The position numbers were made by a program, and so were the translations under genes. A model generated the notes under the pieces. That model was not told the DNA's origin. It made no database searches and saw nothing but the letters and a program-made list of their open reading frames with translations. A stretch of 32,000 bases of DNA from Promethearchaeia archaeon. Lineage in GTDB: Archaea > Asgardarchaeota > Lokiarchaeia > Sigyniarchaeales > SOKP01. The DNA lies in NCBI GenBank assembly GCA_046497275.1, contig JAWOFX010000044.1, positions 4,774-36,773 on the forward strand, in the 5' to 3' direction. Below, one piece after another: positions 417-6,571 of the stretch (positions within the stretch are counted from its first letter, which is position 1; each line of letters begins with the position of its first letter).

Positions 417-3266
417 TTAACTTGTAAATGTAGTCATCTTTCGCTTTATCCTGATCCTCCATTTTCGAATCTCATCTATAAGAAACACACTAAAAGCCCC
501 TAAGAGAAGAACAATCCAATATTCTAAGCGATAAAGGGGTACTACTTTAAAAGCTATTCCTAAGGGTGTATAGAGGATTAATAACTGTAGTCCTAAGGAG
601 AGTCCAGTTGCCCAGAAAAGATGTTTATTCGGAAATAACCAAAAGGGCTTGATATTTGAAGTACATGCGAATACAAACAATAATTCACATACTACTAAGT
701 TTGTAAATACTATTGTCTGTGCTAATGAGATCGCATATTCTCTTGCTGCCGTACCTGCAATCAAATAATTCATAGTTAAATTTGGATCAATTCCCGCTTG
801 AGCCCATGCTGGAATTAAAACTGACCATAACAAAAGATAAAGTGTTATATCGGTGATTGATGTATATATTCCAAGTAAAAGAACTGGGCCCTTAATTTCT
901 GTTATTAATGAAAAACCTTTTCGGGGCTCTTCTTTCATAACATCAGGGTCTGTAGGAGTCAAACCGAGCACCATTGCGGGAATACCGTCCGTTGCAATAT
1001 TCAACCATAATATTTGAACTGGTACGACGGGTAAAGCGATGAAGGTAAATGCGAAGAACTTCATTACGATATATGCCGTAAGAATTAAAAATATTTCATC
1101 GAAATTCGTACTTAACATATATCTGAAGAATCCTTTTGTCGTTTCAAATATTCCTCTTCCTTCTTCTATTGCATCTACTATTGTAGAATAATCATCATCA
1201 AGTAAAATCATATCAGACGCCTCTCGGGTCACTTCCGTTCCTTTTATTCCCATTGCTACACCAACATTTGCTCCCTTTACTGCTGGGGCATCGTTTACTC
1301 CATCACCCGTCATTGAGACTACTTTTCCTTCACCTTTTAATGCCTTAAGTATCCTTAATTTATGTTCAGAAGTCACACGAGCAAAAACATCTATATTTTC
1401 AATCCTTCGGAGTAGTTCATCATTAGACATTTCTTCTAATTCAGCACCAGTTATCGCTTCTTCATTATCTGTTAATCCAATCTCCTTTGCAATAGCTATA
1501 GCTGTAATTTTGTGATCTCCTGTAATCATAATAGTTCGAATACCAGCCATTCGTGCTTCTTTGATGGATTGTTTTACCTCATCTCTCGCGGGGTCAATTA
1601 TTCCTGCCAATCCGAGATATATAAAATCTTGTTCAACCTCTTCTTTGGAATATCCCTCTTCTAAAGGTTTATATGCTATTCCCAGTACTCGTAGAGCATC
1701 TTTGGCAAATTCTTCGTTTTTAGAAAGATATTTATCTTTAATCTTCTCTATTTGTTTAATTTCTCCGTTATAAAGCCCTTTTCCTGCTTTTTCTATAAGA
1801 ACATCCGGTGCTCCTTTGATTAAGGAAAATAATTCTCCATTCATTCTAACTACAACAGACATCATCTTTCTATCGGAATTAAAAGGGATTTCATCAACTT
1901 TTTCTACTTCAGAATCGATATCCATCTTTTTTGCTAGGACTTTCAAGGATATTTCTGTAGGATCTCCAATAACATCGGTCTTTTTGGAATTTTCGTTTTT
2001 AGGATTGACTGTAGAGTTATTACAATACAAGCATACTTCCAAATATCTTTTTAAATAATCATTTTCATCAATTAAGACTGGTTTTTCGGAATTATCCACA
2101 ATTTTCCCTTCCAGAGAATATCCAACGCCTTCTACATCATATACCTTCCCTCCGAGAAATACCTTTTTAACTGTCATTTCATTTTTCGTCAATGTTCCCG
2201 TTTTATCCGAACATATGATGTTAACTCTTCCTAACGTTTCAACAGCGGTTAAAGTTTTCACTAAAGCATTCCTCTCCGCCATTCTTCGCATCCCTATACT
2301 CATGACTACCGTAATTACAACTACAAGACCTTCTGGTACTGCCGATACCGCAAGACTAATTGCTATTTTAAAAGCTTCAATTATTGCATCAATTTCTTCT
2401 TGATTGAATTGAAGTCCCTCGTCTATTGTAATTAATATAAATTCTATAGCAAAAACGGCAAAACAAATAATTAGGATAATTATTCCTAACAATTTCCCAA
2501 AACTATCAACTTCCTTTTGAAAGGGACTTTTTTCATATTCTTCTTCTTGTATTTTTTCAGCTATTTTTCCTACTTCAGTTTTCATCCCAGTTCTTACTAC
2601 AATCGCAAGACCATTACCTCGTGTGATAACTGTGTTACTGTAGACCATATTTTTTCTATCTGCCAACATTGTTTTTTCGTCATATAATTTAAGATCTTTT
2701 TCAACTGGTTGGGATTCTCCTGTAAGAATTGCTTCATCAGCGTACAAGGAATAAGCTTTTATGAGTCTTCCATCTGCGGCAATTTTATCACCTTCATCTA
2801 ATTTAAGTATGTCCCCTGGGACGACTTCTTTTACTTCAATTTTTTTAACTTTTCCATTTCTAATAACTTTTGCATAATGAGGTGCCATTTCTTTTAGGCT
2901 TTCTAATGCTCTTTCTGCCTTATATTCTTGATAAAATCCTAATATAGCGTTTACGATAAGGATTACAAATATAACAATGGCATCCACAAATTCTGAAGGC
3001 TCTTCACCGGAGTAAATGGAATAAACCCCAATAATAATTGATATAACAATCGCAAAAAATAACAAATAGACCAAGAAATCTTTAAATTGACTAAGAAAAA
3101 TCTGCCAAGCTGAAATTCCTTTAGTTTTCTCAATTTCATTTGTACCGTATTTTTCAATTCGTTTTTTAGCTTCCTCTTCACTAAGACCATTCTTTGTCGA
3201 TGTATCTAATTCATCCGCTACTTTTTCAACTTTTAATGAATGTACGTTTAATTCTTCATTTTTCAT
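417..3266 (-). CDS. P-type ATPase, type IIA (SERCA/PMR1-like) Ca2+-transporting ATPase
   Basis: DKTGTLT phosphorylation motif, TGES, KGAPD, TGD, GDGVNDAPA. M4 PEGL, M5 STNFDE and M6 WLNIATDGIPA match the SERCA Ca2+ ligands N768/E771/N796/T799/D800. About 10 hydrophobic segments. Confidence 0.93.
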   Translation of the reverse strand: MKNEELNVHSLKVEKVADELDTSTKNGLSEEEAKKRIEKYGTNEIEKTKGISAWQIFLSQFKDFLVYLLFFAIVISIIIGVYSIYSGEEPSEFVDAIVIFVILIVNAILGFYQEYKAERALESLKEMAPHYAKVIRNGKVKKIEVKEVVPGDILKLDEGDKIAADGRLIKAYSLYADEAILTGESQPVEKDLKLYDEKTMLADRKNMVYSNTVITRGNGLAIVVRTGMKTEVGKIAEKIQEEEYEKSPFQKEVDSFGKLLGIIILIICFAVFAIEFILITIDEGLQFNQEEIDAIIEAFKIAISLAVSAVPEGLVVVITVVMSIGMRRMAERNALVKTLTAVETLGRVNIICSDKTGTLTKNEMTVKKVFLGGKVYDVEGVGYSLEGKIVDNSEKPVLIDENDYLKRYLEVCLYCNNSTVNPKNENSKKTDVIGDPTEISLKVLAKKMDIDSEVEKVDEIPFNSDRKMMSVVVRMNGELFSLIKGAPDVLIEKAGKGLYNGEIKQIEKIKDKYLSKNEEFAKDALRVLGIAYKPLEEGYSKEEVEQDFIYLGLAGIIDPARDEVKQSIKEARMAGIRTIMITGDHKITAIAIAKEIGLTDNEEAITGAELEEMSNDELLRRIENIDVFARVTSEHKLRILKALKGEGKVVSMTGDGVNDAPAVKGANVGVAMGIKGTEVTREASDMILLDDDYSTIVDAIEEGRGIFETTKGFFRYMLSTNFDEIFLILTAYIVMKFFAFTFIALPVVPVQILWLNIATDGIPAMVLGLTPTDPDVMKEEPRKGFSLITEIKGPVLLLGIYTSITDITLYLLLWSVLIPAWAQAGIDPNLTMNYLIAGTAAREYAISLAQTIVFTNLVVCELLFVFACTSNIKPFWLFPNKHLFWATGLSLGLQLLILYTPLGIAFKVVPLYRLEYWIVLLLGAFSVFLIDEIRKWRIRIKRKMTTFTS

Positions 3267-3554
3267 TTTTAGATCAAATTTTATGTAACATTTTTGTATT
3301 AGATATTAAAAATATATAAGTTAATACTTTAAATTTAATAAATCGATCTAATTCAAAATCTTCGTTTTTATGCTATTTATGAAGAAAGAGTTTATTCAAT
3401 AGATGTGAATTAATTGTTGATTTTGAAAATGCTTAACTCATTTTAGTTTAAGAATAGAACTTATTGAGTCATCCCAAAAAATTTTATGTTAAAAGTCTTA
3501 TTTAATATATAGAATAAAATAGAAACGACAATATAAACTCAAAAAAGGTGGTTT

Positions 3555-3935
3555 TTGTTTAGGGTTAAGATTACAAAAACAGCATTAAAATTCATTTATC
3601 GAGAACAAGAAAAAAAATATCCGGATAACAGCAATCGAAAACCGACAATTGCAGTATTTTATCATCAAAATTCAACGTGAACCACATTTTTCTGTGGTAA
3701 TATCGTCGAAGTGGTAGATAAAAATAAAATTCTGAACGATTCGCATCTTTTTATTCTCTGGGATGATGTGGAGGGAAATCCACCTATCGATATATTTATT
3801 GAAGATCAAGTAATGGATGAGATTGAACAAAAACCGGAATTACTAATTGATGCAGTTATAGGAGAAATAAAAGATAAAGAATATGGGATGCTGTTTATTA
3901 AAAAAGATTCAAATATATATATGGATAAAAAATGA
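3555..3935 (+). CDS. HesB-like selenoprotein 1, 126 aa, Sec at codon 42 (UGA 3678-3680), motif STUTTFFCG
   Basis: The frame of the ORF-track fragment 3711-3935 is open upstream to TTG 3555 except for one TGA. SD-like AAGGTGG at 3545-3551. N-terminus FRVKITKTALKFI resembles HesB-like starts. Paralog 2 has UGA at the same aligned position; a SECIS follows. Confidence 0.85.
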
Positions 3936-3968
3936 TCTGATCTTATAAAACCTCGAAGATTGGGGATT
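3931..3968 (+). promoter_or_regulatory. SECIS element 1 (eukaryote-like form: AUGA/GA core, 9-bp upper stem, A-rich loop)
   Basis: AUGA 3932-3935; arm UCUGAUCUU 3936-3944; loop AUAAAACCUCG 3945-3955; arm AAGAUUGGG 3956-3964; GA 3965-3966. All 9 stem positions pair (Watson-Crick or G-U). Confidence 0.85.
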
Positions 3969-3983
3969 GACGGTGCGTCCGTT
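3969..3983 (+). other. small hairpin GACGG-UGCGU-CCGUU immediately 3' of SECIS 1
   Basis: 5-bp stem; an equivalent hairpin with a UGCG-containing loop follows SECIS 2. Confidence 0.45.
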
Positions 3984-4151
3984 TATAGATTCCATATTAA
4001 TTATGTGCTATAAATTAAAAGACAAATATAGAATAGAATTAAAGTAACTTCTTCTATTAAAATTTTAAAATATAATCTGAATTTTTTATTCAGTTAATTA
4101 TTTAGATTATACTAAGAATATAATTAAGAAAAATAATAAGGTGTTCTTAGT

Positions 4152-4505
4152 ATTAAAATAACTCTTACAGAAGATGCTAAAGAAATAATTAAGGAACAGA
4201 GCAAAAAGATTCGTGAAAGAGAAAAAATACAAAACATAGTATTAGCGATTTATCAATACACGAGTGGATCTTGATCTGGATATTTTTGCATGGATCTTGT
4301 TCAAATGGCAGACAAACGAGACGTTGAAAAAAATAGGAACTTCAAATATATGACAAATAATAATGGAATTGAAATTTATATAGAAAAAGATACCCTAAGC
4401 ACTTTAAATTCAATTGAGGAACTAATAATCGATGGAAAAGGAATCGAAAGATATGGTCAAAAAACTGCTCGACTTACCTTAATTAAAAATTACTTAAAAA
4501 AATGA
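4152..4505 (+). CDS. HesB-like selenoprotein 2, ~117 aa, Sec at codon ~41 (UGA 4272-4274), motif GSUSGYFCM; start codon uncertain (ATT 4152)
   Basis: The frame of fragment 4290-4505 is open upstream from 4140 (in-frame TAA at 4137) except for one TGA. IKITLTEDAKEII is a typical HesB-like N-terminus. Aligns with selenoprotein 1 (LAIYQYTSGSUSGYFC vs IAVFYHQNSTUTTFFC; IEIYIEKD vs IDIFIEDQ; ELIID vs ELLID). SD-like AAGGTG at 4138-4143; a SECIS follows. Confidence 0.82.
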
Positions 4506-4538
4506 TCTAATCTTACAAATATTAGAAGATTAGTGATT
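4501..4538 (+). promoter_or_regulatory. SECIS element 2 (eukaryote-like form)
   Basis: AUGA 4502-4505; arm UCUAAUCUU 4506-4514; loop ACAAAUAUUAG 4515-4525; arm AAGAUUAGU 4526-4534; GA 4535-4536. Same geometry as SECIS 1, with pairing-preserving changes. Confidence 0.85.
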
Positions 4539-4541
4539 TTT

Positions 4542-4562
4542 CAGGTTGCGCCTGTTTTTTTT
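4542..4562 (+). terminator. hairpin CAGG-UUGCG-CCUG followed by an 8-T run; possible terminator or SECIS accessory hairpin
   Basis: 4-bp GC-rich stem 4542-4545/4551-4554 and T8 at 4555-4562, in front of the convergent aconitase gene. Confidence 0.4.
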
Positions 4563-4645: not shown

Positions 4646-6571
4646 TTATTTTTGTTTGTTTCTGATATATGGCAATTTTCCGCCAGCTCTTAAAATCTCA
4701 GTCATTCTATTACTTAAATTATGAATTACAGGTATTTCAGAATTTTGTGTGAGATTATGTACCATTAATTCTCTTTTCTCAAGAGATTCTAATTCAATTT
4801 CTATCTCATCGTCTTGATCAATAAGATCATAATCATTCAATCTCTGAAAAGTTAAAGGCACAATTCCGAAATTAACAAGATTATCTAAATGGATTCTTGC
4901 AAACGATTTGGCAATAATCGCTTTAATTCCCAAATATTTAGGAGCTATTGCAGCATGTTCTCGACTTGAACCTTGACCATAATTTTCTCCTCCTATAATA
5001 AATCCTCCATCACTTTCCAATGCTCTTTTTGAAAAGCTTGGGTCTATAGGATTGAAAACATATTGACTAATCTCGGGAATGTTACTTCTCAAAGGTAGAA
5101 TTTTTGCTCCCGCAGGCATTATATGATCCGTTGTAATATTATCTTCTACTTTAAGTAATACTTTTCCCTCCAATTTGGCAGCTAACGGAGGAAATTCCGG
5201 TAGAGATTTTATATTAGGCCCTCTGACAATTTGTACATCTTTGGCCTCCCTAGGAGGTAAAGGGGGGATGATCATATTATCATTCACAATGAATTTTTTA
5301 GACATTTGTATTTTAGGAAACTCACCAAATTTCCGAGGATCTGTTATTATTCCTTCGATTGCAGCCATTGCAGCAGTCTCAGGACTTACAAGATATACGC
5401 TAGCACTTTTCGTTCCAGATCTGCCAAGAAAATTTCTATTAAATGTCCTTAAAGACACAGCATCACTTTTAGGAGCTAATCCTTGACCAAGACATGGTCC
5501 ACAAGCATTTTCAAGGATCCTTGCTCCAGCTTCAATAAAATAGGCCATTTCTCCAGAACGAATCATATGGTTCACTACTTGACGAGATCCTGGAGAAATT
5601 GTAAGGACGGTATGTTGACTGATTGTTTTGTTTTTAAGCATATTAGCAGCAATTTTTAAGTCTCTTAGAGAAGAATTTGTACAACTGCCAATACAAACTT
5701 GATCAACATTCAATCCTTCAATTTCATGTATTGGTTTAACATTCCCAGGACTATGAGGTTCAGCTACTAGAGGTTCAAGTTCATCTAAATTAATTTCGAT
5801 AACATCATCATAGATAGCATCCTTATCCGGCTCTAATGAGGTCCACACTTCTTCTCTACTTTGTGCTTCTAAAAATACTCTTGTAATTTCATCCGATGGG
5901 AAAATTGAAGTTGTTGCTCCTGTTTCTGTTCCCATATTAGTGATTGTTGCTCTTTCTGGAACAGAAAGTGTACTAATACCCGGACCAGTATATTCTAATA
6001 TCTTATTTACCGCTCCTTTCACGCCTATTCTTCTTAAAACTTCTAAAATAATATCTTTTGCTGAAACAAATTCAGTCAATCTTCCAGTTAAACGTACATT
6101 AACAATTTCTGGCATTCTAAGATAGAAAGGCTCTCCTGCCATAGCAGCAGCAACATCTAACCCTCCTGATCCGATTGCAATCATTCCTATGCCTCCACAA
6201 GTGGATGTATGACTATCACTGCCTAATAAACTTTTTCCAGGAACAGAGAATCTTTCAAGATGGATTTGATGACATATTCCATTTCCTGGTCGAGAAAAGA
6301 ATAATCCATATTTAGCAGCAATATTCTGAAGATATCTATGATCATCTGCATTTCTAAAATCTGTTTGTAGGATATTATGATCCACATAACTTACGGATAA
6401 TTCCGTTTTTACTCGTGGTACGTCCATTTTTTCGAATTGAAGATATGTCAGCGTCCCTGTTGAATCTTGGGTAAGTGTTTGGTCCATTCTTATTCCAATC
6501 ATTTCACCCTTTTTGGATTCTCCATCGATGAGATGATCCTTTAAGAGCTTTTCCGCAAGTGTGTATCCCAT
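4646..6571 (-). CDS. acn: aconitate hydratase (short ~640-aa single-chain type)
   Basis: DHN, GSDSHT, GSCTN and CGPCLG 4Fe-4S ligands, plus a C-terminal swivel domain with TTDHI and NYGQGSSREHA. Confidence 0.88.
   Translation of the reverse strand: MGYTLAEKLLKDHLIDGESKKGEMIGIRMDQTLTQDSTGTLTYLQFEKMDVPRVKTELSVSYVDHNILQTDFRNADDHRYLQNIAAKYGLFFSRPGNGICHQIHLERFSVPGKSLLGSDSHTSTCGGIGMIAIGSGGLDVAAAMAGEPFYLRMPEIVNVRLTGRLTEFVSAKDIILEVLRRIGVKGAVNKILEYTGPGISTLSVPERATITNMGTETGATTSIFPSDEITRVFLEAQSREEVWTSLEPDKDAIYDDVIEINLDELEPLVAEPHSPGNVKPIHEIEGLNVDQVCIGSCTNSSLRDLKIAANMLKNKTISQHTVLTISPGSRQVVNHMIRSGEMAYFIEAGARILENACGPCLGQGLAPKSDAVSLRTFNRNFLGRSGTKSASVYLVSPETAAMAAIEGIITDPRKFGEFPKIQMSKKFIVNDNMIIPPLPPREAKDVQIVRGPNIKSLPEFPPLAAKLEGKVLLKVEDNITTDHIMPAGAKILPLRSNIPEISQYVFNPIDPSFSKRALESDGGFIIGGENYGQGSSREHAAIAPKYLGIKAIIAKSFARIHLDNLVNFGIVPLTFQRLNDYDLIDQDDEIEIELESLEKRELMVHNLTQNSEIPVIHNLSNRMTEILRAGGKLPYIRNKQK

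Follow-up and report, generated by a model that had tools for sequence, protein, structure and literature searches.

A putative selenoprotein family with an IscA/SufA/HesB-like fold encoded by tandem genes in Lokiarchaeia

A-type carriers have three ligand Cys residues, one located in a loop and two in a C-terminal C-x-C motif. The HesB-like selenoprotein has been labelled with 75Se in Methanococcus maripaludis and is of unknown function (PMC11097638, PMC13188914). Its family, TIGR01911, is listed with the motif UxGP, and a second family, the CC/Se motif family NF041239, is predicted in Moorella thermoacetica and listed with the motif CxxU (PMC13188914 Table 1). For Loki, the 2016 study by Mariotti et al. 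describes five selenoprotein families and defines the lokiSECIS element as an AUGA followed by a 9-bp stem, whose 11-nt loop opens with adenines and closes with G, and then a GA; the element is placed near the end of the coding sequence, and the stop codon of VhuU.1 is contained in the AUGA core (PMC4989117). A later survey of >400 genomes, Huang 2024, reported seven Asgard families by homology to known selenoproteins (PMC11227280), and a 2026 review counts eleven archaeal families, of which only Prx-like, AhpF-N and DsbA-like are exclusive to Asgard archaea (PMC13188914).

A family with the IscA fold is absent from the Asgard selenoprotein lists of 2016, 2024 and 2026. The supplement of Huang 2024 (87 files) holds no HesB, IscA or 'hypothetical protein' entry, and a full-text literature search returned nothing that links Asgard selenoproteins to IscA or HesB. 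The Lokiarchaeia-wide family of putative selenoproteins described below is thus missing from the searchable published Asgard surveys.

Two tandem genes and their decoding signals

Gene a lies on the forward strand at positions 3555–3935 of the window, the 32,000-nucleotide stretch of DNA that we analysed, and would encode a 126-aa selenoprotein of the a-type with an IscA/HesB-like fold. A single frame runs from TTG 3555–3557 to the TGA at 3933–3935, its sole break is the TGA at 3678–3680, and the called 74-aa ORF (GTG 3711 to 3935) lies in the same frame. The standard ORF list splits the gene into a 41-aa piece and a 74-aa piece. The original prediction had joined the two across this one in-frame TGA, and we found both the frame and the motif to be as it described them: read-through gives the 126-aa product ...HQNST-U-TTFF-C-GNIV..., in which the putative Sec is residue 42 and Cys47 (TGT, 3693–3695, forward strand) is its U-x4-C partner. 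The Sec column is TGA in all fetched a- and b-type homologs and Cys in c-type and other homologs. The Cys47 column is invariant in the A1 alignment, and the a-type motif reads U-T-x-x-F-C-G-N.

The start of gene a had been assigned to a TTG linked to an SD sequence, and this assignment held only in part. A GGTGG does precede TTG 3555 by 3 nt, and this TTG remains the probable start, but the codon aligned to it is TAG in the L003 ortholog and TGT in the L005 ortholog. Because the TTG is not universal among orthologs, the exact start codon is not settled. The window is AT-rich, and the G+C content of the genome is 30%.

About 200 nt 3′ of gene a, on the same strand, positions 4140–4505 form one open frame but for the TGA at 4272–4274. 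We refer to this tandem paralog as gene b (~4152–4505, b-type, ~117 aa). Its predicted Sec context is ...YTSGS-U-SGYF-C-MDLV..., with the partner Cys of the U-x4-C pair at 4287–4289 (forward strand) and a b-type motif U-S-G-x-F/Y-C. Proteins a and b are only ~21% identical in an end-to-end alignment, in which the forward-strand TGA codons fall in the same column and the Cys+5 columns also coincide. No in-frame ATG, GTG or TTG was found upstream of the gene b Sec codon (4140–4290), the only ATG being 3′ of it. An ATT at 4152 is kept in 4/4 genus-level b genes and is preceded by GGTG or GGGG at 8 nt in 3/4 of them; in the remaining gene, L001b, the distance is 2 nt, with a TTG at 8 nt. These comparisons suggest that gene b uses an AUU start at ATT 4152, the likely start codon.

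Both genes end in a kink-turn-like element that matches the lokiSECIS definition of PMC4989117. The element of gene a spans 3932–3966 (forward strand) and consists of the AUGA at 3932–3935, a stem of 3936–3944 with 3956–3964 in which 9/9 pairs form, the 11-nt loop AUAAAACCUCG at 3945–3955 (AUAAA...G), and the GA at 3965–3966. That of gene b spans 4502–4536 (forward strand), with the AUGA at 4502–4505, a stem of 4506–4514 with 4526–4534 (8/9 pairs), the loop ACAAAUAUUAG at 4515–4525, and the GA at 4535–4536. In both genes the stop codon is the UGA within the AUGA core. The strict lokiSECIS pattern gave 10 matches in the 3.85-Mb genome and 1 in each of four order-1 Markov simulations. Two of the ten sit exactly at the ends of genes a and b, and two others lie 3′ of VhuD-like genes with several in-frame TGAs. 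Neither element was matched when the window was run through Rfam at gathering thresholds and ARAGORN, which returned no match at all, and RNAfold of the 3′ UTR alone gave a z-score of -0.36 and did not draw the SECIS. The elements are hence recognised by the published definition and not by RNAfold.

Several further observations concern the 3′ ends. Two of the other strict matches follow ORFs that are not obviously known selenoproteins: on contig C100 (reverse strand, ~58.5 kb) a 70-aa hydrophobic ORF with ...GEPSG-U-AY..., and on contig C167 (reverse strand, near 665) a small CxxC...CxxC ORF. Relative to L006, which is 97% identical, gene a carries two additional bases within an (AT)n run at 3918–3935; these change the conserved ...YG-stop C-terminus to ...YMDKK and make the SECIS UGA the stop. 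At the end of gene b (4490–4505) a TAA of L006 is replaced by TAC, likewise shifting the stop to the SECIS UGA. These differences may be real variants or assembly slips.

Small hairpins follow both elements. Directly after SECIS a lies ACGG-UGCGU-CCGU (3970–3982, forward strand), which is kept with changed arms in homologs. SECIS b is followed by CAGG-UUGCG-CCUG (4542–4554) and then a run of eight T, the whole occupying 4542–4562 on the forward strand. A hairpin with a (U)GCG loop is seen 3–6 nt after the SECIS GA in both genes and in most homologs, again with changed arms, and other lokiSECIS elements of the same genome (contigs C100, C109 and C167) are followed by CCUUGCGAAGG. We found no description of such a hairpin in the text of PMC4989117, as far as it was accessible. 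Either a role in the Sec signal or one as a terminator is conceivable.

The genome encodes the Sec machinery on which the original prediction depended: a tRNA-Sec, SelD, SepSecS, a PSTK-like protein and an EFSec-like factor were all found. The tRNA-Sec scores 49.4 bits (cut-off 47) and lies at the ends of contigs C33 and C165. The two matches (C33:11–129 and C165:63–181) have identical scores and are probably one locus split by assembly; each is 119 nt long, enough to hold an intron. SepSecS is encoded beside the tRNA-Sec on C33 (486 bits, above cut-off) and an EFSec/SelB-like factor beside it on C165 (234 bits, full length, below the cut-off of a non-Asgard model). The PSTK-like protein on C60 is also full length and below its non-Asgard cut-off (173 bits), and SelD on C114 (173 bits, above cut-off) itself contains one in-frame TGA. 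As inferred from established Sec decoding, EFSec and Sec-tRNA would read the upstream UGA, 254 nt from the SECIS in gene a and 230 nt in gene b, as selenocysteine. The UGA embedded in the core of the SECIS would act as the stop because it is too close to the element to be recoded, an argument already made in PMC4989117.

Parts of the stretch are contained in 12 metatranscriptomic runs from three studies of salt-lake samples, and RNA contigs from four of the 12 runs were placed on the window. The Sec codon of gene a is bridged by contigs 3547–3721 and 3610–3872, and further contigs pass through SECIS a up to position 4035. Contigs 4126–4396 and 4141–4391 bridge the Sec codon of gene b, and SECIS b is covered by 4183–4552 and 4194–4552. 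Each of these contigs differs from the window by at most one letter, and both Sec codons and both SECIS elements are spanned without any difference. On the evidence of these RNA-library contigs genes a and b are expressed, with the reservation that DNA carry-over is not excluded. Assembled contigs of this kind report presence only, not transcript ends or levels, and the stretches without contigs (3300–3546 and 4036–4125) are not evidence of transcript ends. Position 4552, which falls in the 3′ arm of the hairpin that follows SECIS b, is where two RNA contigs, each from a different study, run into Illumina adapter; this hints weakly that an RNA has its 3′ end there or that reverse transcription stopped.

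Conservation of the Sec column across Asgard archaea

A word-based protein search returned six relatives, all of them C-terminal fragments of 71–85 aa from Lokiarchaeota/Promethearchaeota MAGs and metagenomes, labelled 'hypothetical protein' where named at all. The DNA of all six has an in-frame TGA in the same column, conserved coding sequence upstream of it, and a lokiSECIS past the stop. An exhaustive HMMER search yielded 58 representatives, many of which are fragments that begin near profile position 43, and the full-length ones have W or C at the Sec column. In the one representative that was looked up, the W is a TGA read under code 4. Cys at this column is found in P0032, P0033, P0043, P0045, P0046, P0052, P0057, P0058 and the c-type paralogs; the original prediction had proposed a search for Cys-containing forms, and such homologs exist.

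The c-type is a third paralog that lies between the a and b genes in loci L039, L046 and L052 (genomes G170, G175 and G176), and its clade includes the database proteins P0043, P0046, P0052 and P0057. It is Cys-only, with the motif C-A-G-S-Y-L/S, and lacks both the +5 Cys and the SECIS. In a maximum-likelihood tree the a-type sequences group in a single clade (95/90) that also attracts P0058, a Cys form on a long branch, and the c-type forms one clade (100/99) nested among the Sec-bearing b-type; more distant Sec forms lie across a 98/96 branch. Because Sec occurs on both sides, the simplest reading would be that the c-type arose by a change from Sec to Cys, with the caution that the tree has only a midpoint root.

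The full-length proteins with W raise the possibility that near-cognate or reassigned decoding places Trp or Cys at this UGA, since it was gene callers using code 4 that produced them. We regard this as highly improbable. TGA terminates 322 of 2206 long ORFs in the genome (15%) and is for this reason an ordinary stop and not a general sense codon. In-frame TGA is confined to SECIS-bearing genes, the Cys paralogs being without SECIS, and no W encoded by TGG stands at the Sec column in the loci that were read. The presence of a complete Sec machinery also speaks against such decoding.

Approximately 49 Sec-bearing gene copies in about 37–38 loci keep the TGA at one column. All have U-x4-C except two with U-x3-C, one among the loci and one a database representative. 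A strict SECIS lies 4–45 nt 3′ of the stop in 33 of the ~49 copies, and the remaining copies have near variants, for example with ACGA as the core or with one bulged base in the stem; no such element was found at the four Cys-only genes of these loci. Across 28 distinct SECIS elements, 94% of stem cells are paired and 7/9 pairs have changed on both sides. This is reached by 0/500 shuffles, and sliding the partner by 1–3 columns leaves only 43–59% paired. In a six-frame profile search the family was present in 73/400 Asgard genomes and 22/85 genera, including 53/134 genomes of the family to which the window genome belongs, and nearly every full-length match in Asgard genomes contains exactly one TGA. 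A scan of 185,579 species genomes for the a-type motif gave 33 loci, all in Asgard MAGs.

These data bear on a second alternative, namely that the UGA genuinely terminates translation or marks a decaying nonsense mutation, so that the locus makes two short peptides or is a pseudogene, and the hairpin is a terminator. Such a reading would fit the annotation pipelines, which call the 3′ fragment only, the fact that TGA normally serves this genome as a stop, and the T-run after the gene b hairpins. It does not fit the retention of the TGA column, both of its flanks and the SECIS in either paralog across tens of genomes. Around and upstream of the TGA, differences between orthologs fall on codon positions 1/2/3 in a ratio of 42/24/144, with 108 synonymous and 56 non-synonymous codon differences; judged by these counts, the putative coding region upstream of the TGA is under purifying selection. 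A single predicted fold extends over both halves of the protein, Cys homologs exist, and a separate N-terminal peptide would lack a start codon in gene b, whose only ATG lies past the Sec codon. The true stop is already contradicted by this comparative evidence, and we consider it very hard to sustain. As patterns in genomes, the conserved TGA column, the third-position bias and the SECIS enrichment are together more than chance.

We conclude that genes a and b are very probably real selenoproteins with an IscA/SufA/HesB fold, although selenium incorporation is unmeasured. The central claim of the original prediction, a real selenoprotein truncated by standard pipelines, has gained support from the database fragments, the W residues that represent TGA under code 4, the Cys homologs, the Sec machinery and the lokiSECIS elements, which both genes carry.

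More distant Asgard relatives (L067–L081), from other families and classes, have TGA in the same column in the context G-U-[C/S/G]-G. These have no +5 Cys, often carry a C-terminal G-S-C, and in some cases have a clear lokiSECIS. Relative to them, the Lokiarchaeia family has no tail Cys and has the Cys+5.

Predicted fold and possible roles of the Sec–Cys pair

An AlphaFold2 model of the gene a protein, built with the family alignment, has a pLDDT of 80.5 and a pTM of 0.74, and one predicted fold spans both halves of the product. The model is weak at residues 41–50, the loop around U42–C47 (pLDDT 57). The best ten PDB matches in Foldseek are IscA, SufA, Aquifex AQ_1857, HI1723 and two Lactobacillus 'putative Fe-S biosynthesis' proteins. 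An exhaustive VIA-align comparison ranked IscA 1r94 (Z 8.0), SufA (7.8), IscA 1x0g (6.7) and DsrR (6.7) at the top, followed by 2qgo, 2apn and 2p2e (Z 6.4–5.4) and then a fall to 3.1. The ten Foldseek matches and these seven are without exception IscA, SufA, HesB-like or DsrR proteins. At the sequence level the relation is faint. Pfam gave nothing significant for gene a, and no PF01521 match; gene b matches PF01521 (Fe-S_biosyn) at 23.2 bits (E 8e-5, model positions 2–79), short of the gathering score of 26.3. The family profiles A1 and A2 had only chance matches among PDB sequences, with no IscA. An hhalign comparison with canonical Asgard IscA was weak (E 5e-4, probability 31%) and placed the Sec column on the Cys of the IscA GGC*AG motif. 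By model and alignment together, the predicted Sec occupies the loop position that in A-type carriers belongs to the first ligand Cys. Neither a nor b has a counterpart of the C-terminal C-x-C of these carriers.

The original prediction had called the protein HesB-like and noted that it lacks a C-terminal CxC. The second point is borne out, since the C-G-C of canonical Asgard IscA is unmatched in the family alignments. The first stands for the fold (IscA/SufA/HesB/DsrR) and for the position of Sec on the IscA Cys, and fails for the curated HesB-like family TIGR01911, to which the proteins do not belong. We place the proteins in the IscA/HesB fold superfamily and in no curated family, because the fold matches and TIGR01911, NF041239 and PF01521 all failed.

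The product would thus be an IscA/SufA/HesB-fold protein of ~120 aa with a Cys five residues past the Sec. In the reading that we tentatively favour, without giving it even odds, the Se/S pair would serve as a ligand site that, like that of A-type carriers, binds iron, an Fe-S cluster or some other thiophilic cargo, and the second ligand would have moved from the C-terminal tail to +5 in this lineage. The ligand site is favoured because Sec occupies a carrier ligand position and because the distant relatives combine Sec with a Cys in the tail, which is the IscA arrangement. The function, whether redox or metal binding, is inferred only, as it was in the original prediction, and several points weigh against a ligand site. 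To our knowledge, experiments have yet to show a natural Fe-S carrier ligated by Sec. A single Cys remains in the c-type relatives. The conserved neighbour codes for a Ca-type P2 ATPase and is not an Fe-S assembly gene. A homodimer prediction for the a-type protein, with W at the Sec position, scored 0.01 and is neither for nor against binding.

The neighbour in question is a P2-type cation ATPase with a PEGL motif (417–3266, reverse strand), divergent from gene a; it adjoins the a-type gene in 31/38 loci, with 54–100% ATPase identity. An aconitase (4646–6571, reverse strand) is convergent with gene b. It was considered as a functional partner and set aside, as the adjacency occurs in only part of the loci and is not used as evidence here.

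It is also possible, and nearly as likely as the ligand site, that U and C form a redox pair on an IscA fold that serves as a mere scaffold, in which case Sec would attack an oxidised substrate or disulfide and Cys+5 would resolve the selenenylsulfide. Every Lokiarchaeia Sec form has a nearby Cys (at x4, twice at x3), and the Cys-only c-type has lost it. Redox selenoproteins typically couple Sec to a resolving Cys; their usual spacings are UxxC and CxxU, and an x4 spacing is no known redox motif (PMC13188914). The model has U42–C47 in a flexible loop, and the third and fourth carrier ligands are absent, which is against classical cluster binding; on the other side, the fold does not resemble thioredoxin, the neighbourhood encodes no reductase partner, and in the distant relatives Sec is partnered with a C-terminal Cys at the ligand places of IscA. 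We consider the redox pair less likely than not, and favour the ligand site only slightly over it.

Stated in full, the ligand-site proposal is that Sec and Cys+5 replace the three-Cys carrier site in an Asgard-specific family with three types (Sec a, Sec b and Cys-only c), in a lineage mostly without canonical A-type carriers, and that the a-type is encoded beside a P2-type pump. This combined statement is more speculative than the ligand site by itself, and we put it forward as a possibility that may well prove wrong in part. Canonical PF01521 proteins were found in 4/121 Asgard genomes searched; there were none in 15 genomes of the same family (0/15), and none in the genome of the window.

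Relation to known selenoproteins and A-type carriers

If these inferences are true, the genes represent a previously unrecognised, Asgard-specific selenoprotein family that is among the more widespread in Lokiarchaeia. It occurs in 40% of the genomes of one Lokiarchaeia family and is nonetheless truncated in public annotation. Asgard selenoproteomes serve to reconstruct the origin of the eukaryotic Sec system, and their census is incomplete: selenoprotein counts per genome are too low, because a family present in 73 of 400 genomes is unlisted and is truncated in annotation. The family also supplies dozens of independent lokiSECIS elements with rich covariation, which are useful for SECIS models. 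Finally, IscA-fold Sec proteins beside Cys-only paralogs in one cluster provide a natural experiment on what selenium contributes to a carrier or ligand site.

Among described selenoproteins, TIGR01911, whose methanococcal member is the nearest relative with a name, is alike in being small, distantly related to IscA, with one Sec, in both Sec and Cys forms, and of unknown function. The curated model (cut-off 66.35 bits) gave no match for a or b and nothing above 13 bits in the genome, and only a weak one for the c-type relative P0043 (22.1 bits, E 1.8e-4). The two families differ in their motifs, UxGP in TIGR01911 and U-x4-C (U-T-T-F, U-S-G-Y) in a and b, and in their SECIS elements, since that of the window genes is eukaryote-like (loki type) and not of the euryarchaeal GAA_A or bacterial type. 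They also differ in distribution: TIGR01911 is found in Methanococcales and anaerobic bacteria, whereas the family of the window was found only in Asgard archaea in the collections searched.

NF041239 is the best curated sequence match of the wider Asgard family, with L067 at 38.3 bits, L078 at 29.4 and gene b at 16.8, all below the cut-off of 40 bits; gene a has no match to it. It is a bacterial family, with the listed motif CxxU. Going by these scores, the distant relatives L067–L081 may be unannotated Asgard CC/Se motif selenoproteins.

IscA, SufA and ErpA (PF01521; PDB 1r94, 2d2a, 1x0g) share the predicted fold (Z 8.0, 7.8 and 6.7 over 89–97 residues), and the putative Sec of the window proteins falls in their first ligand Cys column. 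The window proteins differ from them in having Sec for Cys, a second thiol at +5 and no C-terminal C-x-C. The lokiSECIS genes VhuD, HdrA, VhuU and PrxL have a signal of identical architecture and position (Mariotti 2016, PMC4989117), and the window genes encode a different protein family. The kinds to which this locus belongs, HesB-type selenoproteins and loki-type SECIS elements, are thus known, and what is new is the sequence family, its motif and its lineage.
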